Positions 23,741-40,935 of a stretch of 64,000 bases of DNA are shown here, one piece after another. The notes beneath the pieces are model-generated. The model was given only the letters and a program-made list of their open reading frames with translations, had not been told where the DNA came from and made no database searches. The position numbers and the translations under genes are program-made. The first letter of the stretch is position 1; every line of letters starts with the position of its first letter. The stretch comes from Calditrichota bacterium (lineage in GTDB: Bacteria > Calditrichota > Calditrichia > Calditrichales > J004): contig JAJRVW010000222.1 in the NCBI GenBank assembly GCA_024277115.1, forward strand, positions 27,738 to 91,737, in the 5' to 3' direction.

Positions 23741-26215
23741 TTATTTTATATTAAGGGGAAAACTTAAAATAAAAACGGTCCCTTCGCCCAATTTGCTTTC
23801 AACCTCAATTGTCCCTTTGTGCGCCTTTACTACATGGGCAACCAAACTTAACCCCAACCCCACACCACCGGAACTTTGGACACTTTCATCCTGCGAACGA
23901 TAAAATGTATCAAAGATGTGCTGCTGATCCTCGTTCGAAATTCCAATGCCCATATCGGCAATTTTAATAATCACGTGGCCATCTTTCAATTCTGTAGATA
24001 TGTGTATTTCTTTTTGTTTATCAGAATACTTAATCGAGTTCGTCAGAACATTTATAAAACCCGAACAAAGCGCATCTTCGTCGGCAGATAAAATTATATC
24101 TTTTTCTAAAAAGTCGGTTTTAACTCTAAATTGACGTTGCTTAAACTGATAATCCATTAGGTGCAGGACATCTTTTAGCACCTTGTTTAAACTGATTTCC
24201 CTAAAATTATAAGCCGTGTTTCCTCGTTCAATCTTTGAAAAATCCAATACGTTTTTTATTAAACGCGAGAGTCGTGCACTTTCGCCTTCAATAATTTTTA
24301 AATATTCTTTTTGTTTTTCTTTTGGGATATTTTCTTTTTCAGCCAATAACTCGGCAAACATTTTGATGGAAGTTAGCGGCGATTGCAAATCATGCGAAAC
24401 ACCGGAGACGAAATAGGATTTTAGACGGTTGAGCTCGTTTAACCTTTCTGTTTCAAGATTTTTTAACAGAAGCTGTTTTTGAAGCTCTGTTCTTTGCAAG
24501 GCCAAACCAAGTTGAATTCCAATTGTTTTTAAAAGGTCTATATCTTCGAGCGTAAATTTTTGCCCGGACTTTTTACGGCCCAAAATCAACATCCCGATTA
24601 TTTCTGCCGTTGGGGATTTTAACGGGACTATCAAACATTTACCGGCTATCTTTAAATTTTTCTTATCCAGCGCTTCAAACGGAATGCCTGATTCCAACAT
24701 ATTAAAATAACTTAAAACAGCCTTTGATGAGTTTTGCGCATAAACAACCAAATCGTCGATTATCTCCCCGGGAAATCGGCCAAAATTTTTACTTGCTGAT
24801 ATTTCCCACACACCTTGTTCGTTTTTTATATAAAATCCGGAAAATTTCACCTGCAATAAATCGTCTATCCGGCGGATTGTCATTTGTACGATGCTTTCTT
24901 TATCCAGGCTTGTGTTTAATTCCTGTGTAAATTTTTGTTGTGCAAGACGATAATTATAACGCACCCTGAAAAATTTCTGATCAACCATTTTTTGCAGAAA
25001 ACGGCGTAGGGGTTCAAATATCAACGGTGTTAGGATGGCCGCCACTACCGTTGTAACCAGCGATGACTCTACTGTAATAAAACCAATAAACAAAACAGAA
25101 AGTCCAACCAGCGCGGCATACATCACCAAAAGGATTAATGCTGTGAAAAAATAAACCGAGCTTCTACGGAAAATATGGTCAATATCGAAAACATGGTATT
25201 TCACAATCGCGATACTAAAAGTAACCGGGACAATTAACATTACAAGAACAATTGTAAACTCTGGAACGATTAAATCAACCGAGAAAACCTGAGGTAGCTG
25301 CCACAAAAAAACAAACGCCGGCGGCCCAATCGCCAGACCAAAAACGACCCAGCGTATCTGCCTGCGCTCCGATTCCTCCTGCGCATGAATTGAAGAATGA
25401 AAAATATTTGCCACGCCAAAGGTCATAGCCACGGCAAAATAGAGGCGGTTTAAATTAAATGCGGTTAGAAGGTGGTTAAACCAATCAAGCGAAACAGTGG
25501 AAGAAGCCATCAGGAACGTACCGCAAAGCGTAATGGCCAATGCCGTCGAGAAACCATATAAAAGATAGCTTAGCTTTTTTAAATTTTGCCATTTATAACG
25601 CGGGAAAACAAAACTTAGATGGATAAATAACGAAGGCACAAAAGCATAGGCAATAAAGAAAAACAATCGTGTAAACTGCCCGATACTAAACTCCCCGGCA
25701 GAATATGTTCCCCATGTTGAGGTGATTATAATTGCCGTCCCAACAGAAGCCCAATGCCAAACATTGGCCATTACAAGTTCCGGGCGTTTGTAGATGACAA
25801 AAACCCCAAAAATAAAAAAGATCAGCCCTACAATGGTTTGGGCGGTGTTATCGATCCAATTATAGTAAAAAGGAAGTTCGATTTTTAAATGGATTTGCTG
25901 CCCATGACGAAGGACTAAAAAGGAAACAATATCACCTTCTGAATAGGAATCCAGGACAAATTCAATCTCTTCTTTGGAGGAAATAGCATGGCCTGCAATG
26001 GCAATAAGTTTGTCCCCCGTTGCAAAATATTTGGTTAGTCCGGGCGAGATAATTTTATTTACATACAACCCGTCTTTTTCCACATTAAAAGAAATATGTT
26101 TTTCGGGGCTGAGGCCGGCCTTTTGTATAATCCGGGTGAGCCCAAGGATGCAAATAATAAGGAGTAAAAAATCTACAACAAATATACGGGAAAGTTTTTT
26201 CCTTAAGTCGTCCAT
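23741..26215 (-). CDS. Sensor histidine kinase (PDZ-like, multi-TM, GAF-like, HisKA, HATPase_c)
   Basis: N-terminal PDZ-like segment (GDKLIAIAGHAISSKEEIEFVL). About 8 hydrophobic helices. H-box YFVSGVSHDLQSPLTSI. ATPase boxes NVLTNSIKYS, DMGIGIS, GGVGLGLSLV. Confidence 0.85.
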   Translation of the reverse strand: MDDLRKKLSRIFVVDFLLLIICILGLTRIIQKAGLSPEKHISFNVEKDGLYVNKIISPGLTKYFATGDKLIAIAGHAISSKEEIEFVLDSYSEGDIVSFLVLRHGQQIHLKIELPFYYNWIDNTAQTIVGLIFFIFGVFVIYKRPELVMANVWHWASVGTAIIITSTWGTYSAGEFSIGQFTRLFFFIAYAFVPSLFIHLSFVFPRYKWQNLKKLSYLLYGFSTALAITLCGTFLMASSTVSLDWFNHLLTAFNLNRLYFAVAMTFGVANIFHSSIHAQEESERRQIRWVVFGLAIGPPAFVFLWQLPQVFSVDLIVPEFTIVLVMLIVPVTFSIAIVKYHVFDIDHIFRRSSVYFFTALILLVMYAALVGLSVLFIGFITVESSLVTTVVAAILTPLIFEPLRRFLQKMVDQKFFRVRYNYRLAQQKFTQELNTSLDKESIVQMTIRRIDDLLQVKFSGFYIKNEQGVWEISASKNFGRFPGEIIDDLVVYAQNSSKAVLSYFNMLESGIPFEALDKKNLKIAGKCLIVPLKSPTAEIIGMLILGRKKSGQKFTLEDIDLLKTIGIQLGLALQRTELQKQLLLKNLETERLNELNRLKSYFVSGVSHDLQSPLTSIKMFAELLAEKENIPKEKQKEYLKIIEGESARLSRLIKNVLDFSKIERGNTAYNFREISLNKVLKDVLHLMDYQFKQRQFRVKTDFLEKDIILSADEDALCSGFINVLTNSIKYSDKQKEIHISTELKDGHVIIKIADMGIGISNEDQQHIFDTFYRSQDESVQSSGGVGLGLSLVAHVVKAHKGTIEVESKLGEGTVFILSFPLNIK

Positions 26216-26270: not shown

Positions 26271-26989
26271 ATGGCGGGTAGGAGCTGACTCCTGTTAGCA
26301 AATATTAATTTAGACCATAACCTGTTGAAGGATGGTTTGCGCACTTGGGAAAGTGCCTCTACCTTCAGGCCAGGCACAGTAATACATATCAAAACGTACT
26401 TTGGAAACCACACTTACCGGCATCTGCATATTTTTCCCGGCAGATGATTCCTTCCGCATCTCGGATTCAACAAAAAAAGGTAGGAGCTGACTCCTGTCAG
26501 CGAATATTAATTTAGACCATAACCTGCGGAAGGATGATTTGCGCACTTGGGAAAGTGCTTCTACCTTCAGGCCAGGCACAGTAATACATATCAAAACGTA
26601 CTTTGGAAACCACGCCTACCGGCATCTGCATATTTTTCCCGGCAGATGATTCCTTCCGCCTATCGGATTCAACAAAAAAGGTAGGCGCTGACTCCTGTCA
26701 GCGAATATTAAATTTATATCATAACCTGCTGAAGGATGGTTTGCGCACTTAGGAAAGTGCTCCTACCTTCAGGCCAGGCGCTGTAATACATTTCAAAACG
26801 TACTTTGGAAACCACGCTTGCCGGCAGATGATTCCTTCCGCCTATCGGATTCAACAAAAAAGGTAGGAGCTGACTCCTGTCAGCGAATATTAATTTAGAC
26901 CATAACCTGCTGAAGGATGGTTTGCGCGCTTAGGAAAGTGCTCCTGCATTATAGATTCTCTCGCTTTGGAAAGCGCTCCTACCCGCCAT
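26271..26989. repeat. Tandem array of ~200-bp non-coding units (about 3.6 copies) bracketed by a 15-bp inverted repeat
   Basis: Units begin with ggtagg at 26277, 26479, 26680 and 26862 (periods 202, 201, 182). atggcgggtaggagc (26271..26285) is the exact reverse complement of gctcctacccgccat (26975..26989). Conserved hairpins occur in every unit. Confidence 0.9.
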
Positions 26990-26996
26990 CGGCAAG

Positions 26997-28457
26997 TTAT
27001 TCCCAGGTGGTGCCTTCGCGTGTATCTTTTAGGGTTATGCCCAATTCTGTAAGCTTATTTCGTATTTCATCGGCCAGGGCAAAGTTTTTCTCCGCGCGTA
27101 GTTGTGCCCGTAAACTGATCAATAATTCCATTACACCGTCCATTTTATCAGAGGAAGTTTCCTCTTTCTCAAAACTCTCCGGCAATAAACCCAGCACATC
27201 ATCTAAAAGGGATTTTAAAACGGATGTCAGTTTTTCCAGCGTTGGGACTGATAACTTATCAGGCTCGCGTTCAATCCAGGAAGCTGTTTTTTTGATAAAA
27301 TCAAATGTGGCCGCAATAGCGCGCGGTGTGTTAAAATCATCATCCATCGCCTCTTGAAAAGCAGCTTCATAAGCTTCAATCTCTTTTTCAAAAGCGTCGT
27401 CTGTTTTTTCGGATAAAGCTTTGGAAGTAAAAACCTTTTCCACAACCGTATATATTTTTTGCAACCCTTTTTCTGCCGCTTGCAGTGCTGTTTCGCTAAA
27501 ATCGAGCGTGGCGCGGTAATGACTGGTTAAAATAAAAAATCGAATAGCCAGTGGCGGATAGCTCTCTAAGGCCGCTTTTAAGGTTTTAAAATTCCCCAGC
27601 GATTTGCCCATTTTCACACCATCGACATTGACCATATTATTGTGCATCCAGTACTTCACAAAAGGTTTGCCATTGGCCGCCTCACTTTGGGCAATTTCCG
27701 ATTCATGATGCGGGAATTTGTTTTCCATACCGCCACCGTGGATATCGAAAGTCTCGCCCAAATATTTGTTGGACATGCAGGAGCATTCCAAATGCCAGCC
27801 GGGATAGCCTTTGCCCCAGGGACTGTTCCAGCGCATCAGATGGGTTGGATCGGCTTTTTTCCAGAGGGCAAAATCCGCCGCGTTGCGTTTATCGCTTTTT
27901 ACCTCAACACGGTGCCCTTCACGCATTTCATCCACCGAGCGGCCAGATAGCTTGCCATAATCCTTAAACTTTTCCACCTCAAAATAAACATTGCCATCGG
28001 CCTCGTAGGCATACCCTTTTTCCATCAAAGTTTGGATCATCTCCACTTGCTCCGGGATATGACCGGATGCCCGCGGTGAAATATCCGGGCGCAACACATT
28101 TAAAACATCCATGTCCTCAAAATAACTTCGGGTATAATTTTCAACCACTTCCATCGGCTCCAATCGCTCCAACCGGGCCTGCTCGGCAATTTTATCTTCG
28201 CCCTCGTCCGCGTCACTTTGCAGATGGCCCACATCGGTAATATTTTGAACATAGCGCACCTTATACCCCAAATGCCTGAAATAACGCACGATCACATCAA
28301 AGCTGATGTAACTTTTGGCATGGCCCAAATGCGAATCGCCATAAACCGTTGGCCCGCATACATAAATGCCTACAAAACCCGGGTTGATGGGAACAAATTC
28401 TTCTTTTTTACGAGAGAGCGTGTTGTATAAAACCAGATTGTTTTCTTTTAAGCCCAT
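26997..28457 (-). CDS. cysS: Cysteine--tRNA ligase
   Basis: Class I HIGH (GDSHLGHA) and KMSKS (KMGKSLGN) motifs. Full length, 486 aa. Confidence 0.97.
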
Positions 28458-33448: not shown

Positions 33449-34480
33449 CTAGTAAATAAACATTGCATCGCCATAACTGTGAAAGCGGTATTTTTGCTTG
33501 ACCGCTTTTTTGTAGGCCTTCATCATTGTGTCTTTATCAGAAAACGCACAAGACAATAAGAAAAGTGTAGAGCCCGATACATGGAAATTTGTAATCAGTG
33601 CATCAACCACTTTAAAGGTATAAGGCGGATGGATATATTTATCCGTCCATCCCGAATTTGCCTTTACAAATTTATCGACCGTGGCAACCGTTTCCAGCAC
33701 ACGTACGGTTGTTGTGCCTACTGCGACTATCCGGCCACCTTTGCGCTTCACTTCATTGATTTGCTCTTCCGATTCACGCGACAACTCATAATATTCAGAA
33801 TCCATCTGGTGACGGCCTAAATCTTCAACCTGTATCGGACGAAAAGTGCCAAGGCCAACATGCAATGTTAAAGGAATTATTTTAACTCCTTTGGCTTTCA
33901 ACTTTTCCAGTAAATCTTCGGTAAAATGCAAACCAGCTGTTGGGGCAGCTACCGCGCCAATTTTCTGCGCATAAACGGTTTGGTATTTTTCTTTATCAAG
34001 CTCTTCGGCTTCCCTCTTGATATACGGCGGTAAAGGCGATTTACCTACTCTGCCGATCAGGTTAAAAAAGTCTTCGCCATTATAATCGAAACGGACTACG
34101 CGGCCACCTGAGGTTGTGTTGTCAATAACATCACAACCCAAATCGTCGGTAATCTGGATACGGTTGCCCACACGTACTTTCCGTGCTGGTTTTACCAAAA
34201 CTTCCCACATGGTAGATGCAAGTTGCCTCAAAAGAAGCAGTTCAACCTTTGCATCTGTTTTATCTTTTACACCAAAGATGCGCGCCGGAAAAACTTTTGT
34301 TTCGTTCACCACCAACGCATCGCCCTCTTTAAAATAATCAACAATATCTTTGAAAATCTTATCTTCAAGAGTGGAGTCCTTCCGATTGACGACCATGAGT
34401 TTGGACTCATCACGCACATCCACGGGATATTGCGCAACCAGTTTCTTGGGTACGTCAAATTGTATTTCAGAAAGTTTCAT
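33449..34480 (-). CDS. queA: S-adenosylmethionine:tRNA ribosyltransferase-isomerase
   Basis: Full-length QueA pattern (FDVPKKLVAQYP, PLPPYIKR, VAAPTAGLHFT, GTTTVR, FHSYGDAMFI). It ends in TAG. Confidence 0.95.
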   Translation of the reverse strand: MKLSEIQFDVPKKLVAQYPVDVRDESKLMVVNRKDSTLEDKIFKDIVDYFKEGDALVVNETKVFPARIFGVKDKTDAKVELLLLRQLASTMWEVLVKPARKVRVGNRIQITDDLGCDVIDNTTSGGRVVRFDYNGEDFFNLIGRVGKSPLPPYIKREAEELDKEKYQTVYAQKIGAVAAPTAGLHFTEDLLEKLKAKGVKIIPLTLHVGLGTFRPIQVEDLGRHQMDSEYYELSRESEEQINEVKRKGGRIVAVGTTTVRVLETVATVDKFVKANSGWTDKYIHPPYTFKVVDALITNFHVSGSTLFLLSCAFSDKDTMMKAYKKAVKQKYRFHSYGDAMFIY

Positions 34481-34505
34481 AATATTTACTCCTACTTACT
34501 TTGTT

Positions 34506-35534
34506 TTAAAATAAGGACTGCTGATTAAGCGGCCCCTGTTGTTTTCCTTTTGTCAGGCCAAAATGTTCGTACGCAATCTGCGTCACCATCCGCCCGCGTG
34601 AGGTACGCTTTATAAACCCTTGCTGAATCAGGAAAGGTTCGTAAACTTCCTCTATTGTATCACTCTCTTCGCTTACTGCAACTGCGATTGTATTTAGGCC
34701 AACCGGCCCGCCCTGGTATTTTTCGATAATGGTCAGCAAGATACGCTTATCCATGTCATCCAGGCCTTTACTGTCTACATCCAACCTTTTCAGGGCATCG
34801 TCTGCAACAGCTTTTGTGATTTTGTTTTCTGCTAACACCTGCGCAAAATCCCGCACCCGTCGTAACAGACGGTTTGCAATACGGGGTGTCCCGCGCGATC
34901 TACGGGCAATTTCCATCGCCCCTTCTTTTTCGATCTCAATATTTAAAATTTTTGCCGAACGTATTATTATCGTGAACAACTCTTCAGGAAAATAATAATC
35001 CATCCGCAGCACTACACCAAAACGTGCCCGCATCGGCGCGGTTAAAAGTCCTGCCCGGGTTGTTGCGCCCACCAGGGTAAAAGGTTCCAAATTAAGTTGA
35101 ACCGATCTCGCGCTAGGCCCTTTATCGATGATAATATCAATATGAAAATCTTCCATTGCCGAGTATAAATATTCTTCTACAACACTGTTCACCCGGTGGA
35201 TTTCATCGATAAAAAGAACATCTTTTTCCTGCAAATTTGTAAGCAACCCGGCTAAATCGCCCGGCCTTTCCAACACCGGCCCGGATGTCGATTTTATATC
35301 AACGCCCAGTTCCCGGCTTAAAATCAACGCCAGGGTTGTTTTGCCAAGCCCCGGTGGCCCGTAAAGCAAAACATGGTCCAGCGCTTCGCCCCTCTGTTTG
35401 GCCGCTTCAATAAAAATAGCCAGGTTTTCCTTAACTTTTTCCTGCCCGATAAAATCACTTAATTTGTGTGGGCGCAGGCTGATCTCAATTTCATCATCTT
35501 CCGATAAATGATCGGGTGTAATAAGATCGTTCAT
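34506..35534 (-). CDS. ruvB: Holliday junction branch migration helicase RuvB
   Basis: Walker [10 protein letters not shown], Walker B LFIDEIHR, sensor and winged-helix regions. Confidence 0.97.
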
Positions 35535-35539
35535 AAAAG

Positions 35540-36136
35540 TTAAATTACCTGTAAGGCCTGTTTTAATAAATCTTCAACAATCTTTAATTTTTCGGTTTTC
35601 TGCGCTTTTTCAATCGCTTTATTTGCCGCAATCCGTGTATACCCAAGCGACATTAGCGCCATCATCGCTTCTTGTTCAACACCGTTCAAAGTCTTTTCTG
35701 TACGATTTATTCCCTGGCCGGCCGTTACTTCTAACTTTCCAAATTTATCTTGCAGCTCCACCACAAGCCGTTGCGCCGTCTTCTTGCCAACCCCGGAAAT
35801 TGTATTTAAAGTCTTCTCATCGCCCGTCTGGATCGCATGTATCAGCTCATCGGGCGTTAATCCTGATAAAATTGTTTGGGCGAGTTTTGGCCCGATCCCG
35901 GAAATAGAAAGCAGGCTTAGGAAGACCTCTCTTTCCCGTACCTCAAAAAAACCGTACAACTGTAAAACATCTTCACGTACATGAAGATAGCTCATCAATT
36001 TTATCTTGTCACCCGCCTGGGGAATATGTTTAAAGGTAGATAAAGATATTTTAAGGAGATAACCAACGCCACTAACATCCAGTACAACTTCTGTAGGTTT
36101 TTTAGAATCTATAATCCCATTTATATATTAATACAT
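35540..36136 (-). CDS. ruvA: Holliday junction DNA-binding protein RuvA, with in-frame TAA as codon 3 (36128..36130)
   Basis: The listed ORF (TTG at 35998) lacks the OB-fold N-terminus. The same frame upstream reads ATG TAT TAA TAT ATA AAT GGG... = [30 protein letters not shown]. This is the canonical RuvA N-terminus. The ATG (36134..36136) overlaps the ruvC stop as TAATG. Confidence 0.8.
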
Positions 36137-36642
36137 TAAATTTTAACTAACCCTTTTGCTTCCATTTGCATACGGTGCATCTGGCACAAAGCAACCGCCA
36201 ACGCATCCGATGCGTCTTCGGGGGTGATCTTTTCTTTTACCTTAAGAATATTACTTACCATAAAATTTACCTGGCTTTTTGAGGCCGCGCCATTGCCAAC
36301 CACCGACATTTTTACTTCCCTCGCGGTAAACTCACCGATAGATGCATTGTTCTTTGTTGCTGCTACAATTGCCGCCCCGCGTGCATGCCCCATTACAATA
36401 GCTGTCTTAACATTATCCGCATAAAAAATATCTTCGATCGCCACACGGTTGGGCTTATATTCCGCAATAATGGCATCCAGTGATTCAAAAATAACTGTCA
36501 GGCGATCGGCCAGGCTATTTTTAGGCTTGGTCCGGATATGACCGTATTTAATCAACTTTGGGTTATTAGCCTTTACTTCAATAATACCATACCCGGTCGT
36601 ATTTAATCCCGGATCGATACCAAGAATTATAAAGCAGTCCAT
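36136..36642 (-). CDS. ruvC: Crossover junction endodeoxyribonuclease RuvC
   Basis: ILGIDPGLNTTGYGII and the catalytic acidic residues. The start overlaps the yebC stop by 1 nt (TAATG). Confidence 0.93.
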   Translation of the reverse strand: MDCFIILGIDPGLNTTGYGIIEVKANNPKLIKYGHIRTKPKNSLADRLTVIFESLDAIIAEYKPNRVAIEDIFYADNVKTAIVMGHARGAAIVAATKNNASIGEFTAREVKMSVVGNGAASKSQVNFMVSNILKVKEKITPEDASDALAVALCQMHRMQMEAKGLVKI

Positions 36643-37394
36643 TATTCGCCTAAAATTCTTTCCATCTCGCTGTCATCAATATCAAAATTGGCGTACACAT
36701 TTTGGATGTCGTCATGATCGTCAATTTGTTCCATCAGCTTCATCAGCTTCTCAGCATCTTTGCCCGTAACTTCAACTGTATTTTTAGGGATCATAGTCAC
36801 TTCGGCAGAAGCAATTTCAATATTTTTTTCTTCAAGTTCAGCGCGTACCTGATTAAAATCTTCAAACGAAGTATAGATCACAAACTCATCGTCGTTGGTT
36901 TCCATATCCTCGGCGCCACTTTCGATGGCCAGCTCCAACAATTCATCTTCCGAGTTATTTTCCCTGGCAACAGAGATCATCCCTTTGCGTTCAAACATCC
37001 ACGCCACACTGCCATTTTCACCAAGGTTACCGCCCGATTTACTGAGCATGAAGCGTACTTCGGCAACCGTTCGGTTTTTATTGTCTGTCACGGCATCCAT
37101 ATAAACCGCTACACCGCCGGGGCCGTAACCCTCGTACACAACATCTTCATAAACCACACCCGGTAAATCGCCTGTCCCTTTTTTAATCGCATTATCGATG
37201 TTCTTAGCGGGCATATTAGCGCTCTTTGCAGAGTTCACCGCTGCACGTAACCTCGGGTTCATGTCCGGATCGCCACCACCAACACGGGCAGCAACCGTTA
37301 ATTCTTTTATAAGTTTTGTAAATACCTTACCTCTTGCGGCATCTACCTTTGCTTTTTTATGTTTTATTGAATGCCATTTAGAATGACCTGACAT
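36642..37394 (-). CDS. YebC/PmpR family DNA-binding transcriptional regulator
   Basis: MSGHSKWHSIKHKKAKVDAARGKVFTKL is the family signature. 250 aa. Confidence 0.93.
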   Translation of the reverse strand: MSGHSKWHSIKHKKAKVDAARGKVFTKLIKELTVAARVGGGDPDMNPRLRAAVNSAKSANMPAKNIDNAIKKGTGDLPGVVYEDVVYEGYGPGGVAVYMDAVTDNKNRTVAEVRFMLSKSGGNLGENGSVAWMFERKGMISVARENNSEDELLELAIESGAEDMETNDDEFVIYTSFEDFNQVRAELEEKNIEIASAEVTMIPKNTVEVTGKDAEKLMKLMEQIDDHDDIQNVYANFDIDDSEMERILGE

Positions 37395-37634
37395 TTAGAA
37401 CTCCTCCAACTATTCATTAAACGCACCCGTAAAACTGTATCAATTGAGTGACAGCAACCTCAGTCAGCGCTATATTATATTTAATAAGATTTATTAATCC
37501 CTGAACGAACAAGTGAGTTTGGTATAAAAAATATTTAAGAGGGCAAAAATACGAAAATAAGGCGGGTTTTCCAAAAAATAATTATTCAGGAAAATCGATC
37601 AATATAAGTTCTCTAGTAAATACAAACAAGAGGT

Positions 37635-39996: not shown

Positions 39997-40422
39997 ATGC
40001 TTTCAAGCAGTACTGTTTATGCAATTAGGGCATGTATTTATGTTGCCGCCCATAAAAACGAAAATTATATTTCAATTTCTACTATTGCAGAAAAGCTTGA
40101 AATATCGTTTCACTTTTTAACAAAAATTTTACAAAAACTCACCCAGATAAACCTAATGACATCCTACCGGGGTCCAAATGGTGGCGTCGCGTTTACAAGG
40201 CCAACAGATAAAATATTTCTGATCGATATTGTAGATGCTGTGGAGACACACCCCATTTTTAGCCAATGCCTTTTGGGCATACCCGGATGTGGTACAGGCA
40301 AACCATGCCCCCTTCATGAAGATTGGGGACCAATCCGTGAACAATTGCGGGCAAAGTTTGAGAACACAAATCTTGCAGACCTGGCAAATAAAGTTAGTAG
40401 TTTTAACGAGCGGCTACTCTAA
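39997..40422 (+). CDS. Rrf2 family transcriptional regulator (copy 1)
   Basis: N-terminal wHTH (YAIRACIYVA...ISISTIAEKLEISFHFLTKILQKL). Cys cluster C-x6-C-x5-C (CLLGIPGCGTGKPCPLH). Confidence 0.85.
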   Translation: MLSSSTVYAIRACIYVAAHKNENYISISTIAEKLEISFHFLTKILQKLTQINLMTSYRGPNGGVAFTRPTDKIFLIDIVDAVETHPIFSQCLLGIPGCGTGKPCPLHEDWGPIREQLRAKFENTNLADLANKVSSFNERLL

Positions 40423-40450
40423 CTTGTGAGATAAGTAACTTTATTGCATT

Positions 40451-40474
40451 TAATCTTAATTTATTTTAAGATTA
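40451..40474. promoter_or_regulatory. Perfect 9-bp inverted repeat between the two Rrf2 genes
   Basis: taatcttaa-tttatt-ttaagatta. The stem is AT-only, so it could be an operator or a weak terminator. Confidence 0.3.
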
Positions 40475-40506
40475 AGGGATACGAATACCTTTAGGAGTCA
40501 AGAAGA

Positions 40507-40935
40507 ATGTTATCCAATGCTGCAATATATGGAGTTCGTGGTTTAATTTATCTTTCATCACAAACTGAACGAAAATTTATCCCCATCTCTGAAATCTCAA
40601 AAAAACTAAATATTTCATTCCATTTTTTAACCAAAATATTCCAGAAATTTACCAAGAAGAATATCCTTATGTCCAGCCGGGGCCCGCAAGGCGGAATTAG
40701 TTTTAACAAACCGGCAAGTCGAGTGACTGTTTATGAAATAGTGGAAATTATAGATGGACATGATGTTTTTGACAAGTGTGTTCTGGGCCTCCCGGGTTGT
40801 GGTGCCCTCGAACCTTGCCCCATGCACGAAAATTGGAGCCGGGTTAAGGATGAAATAAAAACACAATTTGAAGAAACAACCATTAAAGAGCTGGCTGATA
40901 AGTTAAGCAGGCGAAATGAAATTTTTAGAATTTAA
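40507..40935 (+). CDS. Rrf2 family transcriptional regulator (copy 2)
   Basis: Paralogous to copy 1 (YGVRGLIYLS...IPISEISKKLNISFHFLTKIFQKF; CVLGLPGCGALEPCPMH). Confidence 0.85.
   Translation: MLSNAAIYGVRGLIYLSSQTERKFIPISEISKKLNISFHFLTKIFQKFTKKNILMSSRGPQGGISFNKPASRVTVYEIVEIIDGHDVFDKCVLGLPGCGALEPCPMHENWSRVKDEIKTQFEETTIKELADKLSRRNEIFRI

Follow-up and report, generated by a model that had tools for sequence, protein, structure and literature searches.

The third codon of ruvA in a Calditrichia-like MAG is an in-frame TAA, which very probably represents an unprogrammed, single-base change from GAA (Glu) in an otherwise intact gene. Such a stop belongs among ordinary point nonsense changes or base errors and calls for no new reading of the genetic code. 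A recent nonsense allele and a wrong consensus base are about equally likely as its origin, and the data fit both equally well.

Start and reading frame of ruvA

ruvA is the third of five consecutive genes, yebC, ruvC, ruvA, ruvB and queA, which occupy the minus strand at 33.4-37.4 kb of the window, i.e. of the whole 64-kb stretch of DNA that was analysed. The gene order is identical in L081, a JGI metagenome contig that is the closest relative of the window and the sole close one (~90% nucleotide identity overall). ruvA thus has the neighbours that are characteristic of it, namely ruvB and, as is often the case, ruvC. The features of the cluster that are needed below are the following.

36642..37394, minus strand: yebC (TACO1/YebC family), 250 aa; its stop overlaps the ruvC ATG as TAATG; Pfam families are taken from the L081 ortholog
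36136..36642, minus strand: ruvC, 168 aa, intact; its stop is the TAA at 36138..36136
36134..36138, minus strand: TAATG overlap of the ruvC stop (36138..36136) and the ruvA start ATG (36136..36134); the sequence is the same in L081
36128..36130, minus strand: in-frame TAA, codon 3 of ruvA; GAA (Glu) in L081
36125..36133, minus strand: TAT TAA TAT, the stop between identical Tyr codons; the ancestral sequence is TAT GAA TAT
35540..36136, minus strand: full ruvA frame, 198 codons plus stop, with RuvA_N OB fold, HhH domain II and RuvA_C; codon 3 is the sole interruption
35540..35998, minus strand: 152-aa ORF from TTG 35998..35996, with an ATG next to it at 35995..35993; residues 1-46 are missing
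36109..36120, minus strand: out-of-frame mini-ORF, ATG GGA TTA TAG, which does not enter the ruvA frame
34506..35534, minus strand: ruvB, 342 aa, intact; its ATG lies 5 nt past the ruvA stop
33449..34480, minus strand: queA, fifth gene of the cluster

The yebC product is 96.4% identical to its L081 counterpart at the amino acid level, over the full length. A second copy of ruvA was sought in the window and none was found, and a scan for promoters and terminators around the ruvA stop yielded signals at background level.

Read from 36136, the ruvA frame begins ATG TAT TAA TAT ATA AAT GGG ATT ATA GAT, which translates as MY*YINGIID; past the stop at codon 3 it remains open for 195 more codons, up to the TAA at 35542..35540. 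An initial annotation of this DNA had described the TAA as the third codon of ruvA, downstream of a TAATG-coupled start, and its coordinates all proved correct when checked against the sequence: the TAA is at 36130..36128 and the ATG at 36136..36134, the same TAATG coupling joins yebC to ruvC, and the only ruvA ORF with a canonical start is indeed the one that begins at TTG 35998, which encodes 152 aa and removes 46 residues. Both overlaps are ordinary cases of TAATG stop-start coupling within an operon, and the one between ruvC and ruvA is identical in L081. What sets the latter apart is that ribosomes here reach a start codon with a stop two codons on.

The same annotation had held that ATG 36136..36134 is the authentic start, and hence that the TAA is a true in-frame stop. 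This claim is borne out by three comparisons. First, L081 starts at the same TAATG, and its protein begins MYEYINGII. Second, an ATG, GTG or TTG is aligned to 36136..36134 in every one of 41 orthologous loci taken from GTDB species genomes. Third, solved RuvA chains match the reconstructed protein (E = 1e-39), with residue 1 aligned to residue 1 and residue 5 to residue 5. Since L081, the orthologous loci and the solved structures all begin there, the ATG within TAATG is the authentic ruvA start. Orthologs that initiate downstream, with the same truncated N-terminus, had been suggested as a check, and none was found. The other possibility raised at the time, a 1-nt deletion in the GGG run (36118..36116) that would bring the out-of-frame ATG at 36120..36118 into the ruvA frame, did not survive the comparison and was rejected: GGG and frame agree between L081 and the window, and the out-of-frame ATG was created solely by a synonymous AAC to AAT difference.

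Codon 3 in orthologs and in the nearest relative

A single codon is to be judged against orthologs, chance being the wrong test. Past the stop, the frame matches RuvA proteins of Calditrichota/Calditrichia MAGs. The best match, P0001 (JGI, 198 aa), is encoded by L081 and is 99% identical over the 195 residues past the stop; when the window frame is taken through the stop, identity with P0001 is 98.5% over 198 residues, and the stop is one of three mismatches. P0001 carries RuvA_N (PF01330), HHH_5 (HhH domain II, PF14520) and RuvA_C (PF07499), that is, the three-domain architecture of RuvA, subunit A of the Holliday junction branch migration complex. Its N-terminus reads MYEYINGII, and the other 11 full-length proteins retrieved (P0002-P0008 among them) begin MFEY, MFDY or MYEF. 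The acidic pin of the RuvA OB fold, Glu55-Asp56, the role of which is described in PMC8881015, is present as well: residues 54-56 of the reconstructed protein are R-E-D, collinear with the E. coli numbering. What is missing from the RuvA of the window is an uninterrupted full-length ORF, owing to the TAA at codon 3.

Codon 3 is a sense codon in all 41 orthologous loci, where it specifies Gly (24 loci), Ala (7), Ser (5), and Glu or Asp (5). A stop at this position was found in none of these 41 genome loci and in none of the 12 closest full-length proteins; among the sequences compared it is unique to the window.

From yebC to queA, the window and L081 are collinear, with 3,943 nt aligned and zero gaps, and the two ruvA genes are 97.3% identical. 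At the ruvA start, L081 reads TTTAATGTATGAATATATAAACGGG and the window TTTAATGTATTAATATATAAATGGG. Codons 1-4 of the L081 gene are ATG TAT GAA TAT; since L081 reads GAA at the collinear site, the window stop corresponds to a single GAA to TAA change, one G-to-T substitution (C to A at 36130 on the + strand). The stop aside, the two genes differ by 13 synonymous and 2 non-synonymous substitutions and by no indels (dN/dS 0.04), which is similar to the neighbour genes (dN/dS 0.02-0.12). Even codons 4-46, which lie between the stop and the first downstream start, still look coding, with 5 synonymous differences to 1 non-synonymous. Because the rest of ruvA shows no decay, the stop must be either very recent or an error. 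The other 19 genes common to the window and L081 reach full length in the window and contain neither a stop nor a break of the frame, which shows the TAA to be an isolated event in an assembly that is not prone to errors in general.

Similarity to L081 varies along the cluster. Between window 33450-37400 and L081 8743-12685, which differ by no indels, identity is strongly mosaic and lies anywhere from 81% to 99% when taken per 150 nt. A block of 95-99% identity (about 36570-35220) takes in ruvA together with the 5' part of ruvB, and the ruvB/queA junction (window 34620-34245) is 98-99% identical. Synonymous divergence (dS) is 0.10 for ruvA, 0.36 for ruvC, 0.34 for ruvB and 0.79 for yebC. This mosaic pattern suggests recent homologous recombination between the lineages of the window and of L081.

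Decoding at and downstream of the stop

An in-frame stop within a conserved and otherwise intact ruvA is what one might expect of programmed recoding, in which the TAA would be reassigned or read through by design, or a frameshift or 1-nt indel (the GGG deletion included) would restore the frame. Nothing else speaks for it, however, and its probability is close to nil. Stop-codon reassignment and programmed readthrough were rejected on two grounds. On the one hand, the codon-3 stop is not conserved in any relative compared, L081 having GAA. On the other hand, TAA is the dominant terminator of the window, since 41 of the 50 ORFs with 150 aa or more end in it, yebC, ruvC and ruvA itself among them, and there is no accompanying structure: the predicted fold of the 116-nt region at the ruvA start is no more stable than those of shuffled controls (z = +0.71). 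Across the 64-kb window no Rfam family was matched, and no tRNA gene, suppressor or other, was found. As to programmed ribosomal frameshifting, a shift from the start into the RuvA frame is impossible because each of the two other frames runs into a stop within 10 codons of the ATG (TGT ATT AAT ATA TAA and GTA ... TTC TAA); this candidate was rejected since there is no open frame from which to rejoin and since RuvA is encoded in frame 0 from beginning to end. L081, moreover, has an identical GGG run and frame, and the out-of-frame ATG stems from a synonymous change. Recoding and frameshifting are refuted as far as sequence can tell, and the codon-3 TAA would appear to be neither a decoded nor a regulatory feature.

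A less demanding proposal is that the TAA is real and that a small amount of working RuvA arises by leaky decoding near the start. Three routes can be envisaged: (a) a stop-hop, in which fMet-Tyr-tRNA would leave the TAT of codon 2 and re-pair with the TAT of codon 4, to give a 196-aa protein that begins MY-INGII...; (b) a restart after termination at codon 5, 8 or 9, which are the near-cognate ATA, ATT and ATA; (c) readthrough of the TAA by a near-cognate tRNA. The sequence offers some encouragement, in that matched Tyr codons flank the stop (TAT TAA TAT, 36133..36125), ribosomes would come by TAATG coupling and terminate just 6 nt past the start, and ruvA shows no further decay. Yet the flanking TATs are ancestral (TAT GAA TAT in L081), which makes the motif accidental, and the stop is absent from every relative compared; expected yields are about 1% or less, there is no stimulatory RNA structure, and a recent mutation or an assembly error explains the lack of decay equally well. 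In E. coli, a T after TAA makes for a strong terminator context, and dipeptidyl-tRNA is prone to drop-off, both of which also count against leaky decoding. All in all, the proposal is unlikely.

Two published findings speak for leaky decoding. Matched codons around a stop gave hops in synthetic E. coli constructs (reviewed in PMC5009743), and no natural in-frame stop-hop was known at the time of that 2016 review by Atkins and colleagues. Initiation at AUA and AUU in E. coli reaches 0.02-3% of the AUG level (bioRxiv 10.1101/063800). As reviewed in PMC5009743, the synthetic stop-hop sites of Weiss, Dunn, Atkins and Gesteland (1987) resemble the ruvA site in that 9 nt could specify a single Tyr, and ruvA does have matched take-off and landing codons. 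Unlike those sites, the window motif is accidental and unconserved (L081 has TAT GAA TAT and the others have TTT GAA TAT and similar), and it spans codons 2-4, so that the nascent chain would be a dipeptide. That the TAA is real and that a hop from codon 2 to codon 4, or a restart at ATA or ATT, keeps up a low, useful level of near-full-length RuvA is highly improbable; if it were true, ruvA would be a natural in-frame stop-hop.

The remaining way around the stop would be to start downstream of it. According to this idea, the product initiated at TTG 35998 (152 aa) or at ATG 35995 (151 aa) would be a functional, shortened RuvA, made by internal initiation or by a restart of the lacI type. The 152-aa ORF is the only canonical one, its product is on record (P0009) for what is evidently the source contig, an NCBI contig of 112,141 nt, and a GGTGA lies 10-13 nt upstream of the TTG and ATG codons. 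A precedent exists in lacI, in which translation restarts at internal starts after early stops (Platt 1972 and Steege 1977, as cited in PMC3694819), and ruvA resembles it in having an early stop with in-frame TTG and ATG codons downstream, at positions 47 and 48. The likeness ends there, since lacI restart fragments keep a folded core, whereas the RuvA fragment would lack most of the OB-fold core domain. Indeed, residues 1-46, which make up most of OB-fold domain I, are gone and P0009 has no RuvA_N Pfam match, while domains I and II together form the tetramer and junction-binding core (PMC8881015). Furthermore, the full-length homologs retrieved all start at the upstream ATG (a few shorter listed products were left out), and codons 4-46 still look coding in the comparison with L081. 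A functional shortened RuvA hence has only the slightest of chances. By analogy with lacI, a fragment of 152 or 151 aa could result from a restart at TTG 35998 or ATG 35995; it would keep the acidic pin (E55-D56) but probably not a folded barrel. The recorded 152-aa 'RuvA' is an ORF-calling artefact downstream of the stop. For annotation purposes the locus should be labelled as a ruvA that contains an internal stop (pseudogene or sequence error), the 152-aa call having the effect of hiding the codon-3 stop.

Nature of the stop, and further features of the window

Within the preferred explanation, an unprogrammed single-base change, I tentatively give a little under an even chance to a loss-of-function allele that arose very recently in the population sampled, and slightly less to a wrong base in the assembly consensus. 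A 15-billion-protein collection has the source contig and its products just once, and the TAA is without independent confirmation: exact-protein look-ups with the 152-aa product and with RuvC retrieved no other contig carrying the same strain's copy, a DNA pattern across the stop, with N at the variable base, had no match in metagenome contigs, and protein-guided scans found nothing closer than 76% in metagenome contigs and nothing closer than 71% in genome contigs.

A consensus base error in a MAG would look much like what is seen here, an isolated substitution in one assembly, within an AT-rich stretch and with clean neighbours. What differs from such a case is that the 19 other compared genes are free of lesions, so that the assembly error rate is evidently low.

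Turning to the nonsense allele, RuvA belongs to the core repair proteins that are broadly conserved, and because of this a null ruvA in the dominant genome of a population would be somewhat unexpected. ruvA is nevertheless dispensable in E. coli, and its loss would, by analogy, be tolerable in principle. A parallel is the ruvA of Wolbachia, which has been described as under relaxed selection while RecG is retained (PMC4224334). The window gene is like an ordinary nonsense allele or a young pseudogene in having a single in-frame stop, a disabling lesion as judged against its intact orthologs; RuvAB function partly overlaps that of RecG, so that the loss of ruvA is tolerable. It differs in that it shows no sign of relaxed selection or of further degradation, and in that its host is a free-living Calditrichia-like bacterium rather than an endosymbiont. 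If ruvA is a real pseudogene here, it would thus be a very young one.

Should the TAA be real, ribosomes arriving from ruvC by coupling would initiate at the TAATG and terminate after Met-Tyr (fMet-Tyr). Full-length RuvA would then not be made, trace leakage aside, and ~590 nt of ruvA mRNA would be left untranslated. Since this untranslated stretch directly precedes ruvB, the ATG of which is 5 nt past the ruvA stop, polarity on ruvB may ensue. The population would in that case carry a fresh ruvA-null allele, which would be mildly interesting given the mosaic identity to L081.

Two further features of the window lie outside the cluster. The 780-nt gap between cysS (26997..28457) and an 824-aa ORF (23741..26215), the L081 counterpart of which is a PDZ/GAF/HisKA sensor kinase, is filled by a tandem array (window 26271-26950, gene strand minus) of four copies of a ~95-nt element with a 202-nt period. 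In L081 the gap is 236 nt long and holds one copy of this element. Each copy, read on the gene strand, forms three hairpins, which are closed by AAGGTAGGAG...CTCCTACC and precede a T run; the 5 copies showed no compensatory changes, and the element matched no Rfam family. Finally, window 39997-40932 contains two adjacent genes for Rrf2-family regulators, which are paralogs of ~46% identity and are both conserved in L081.
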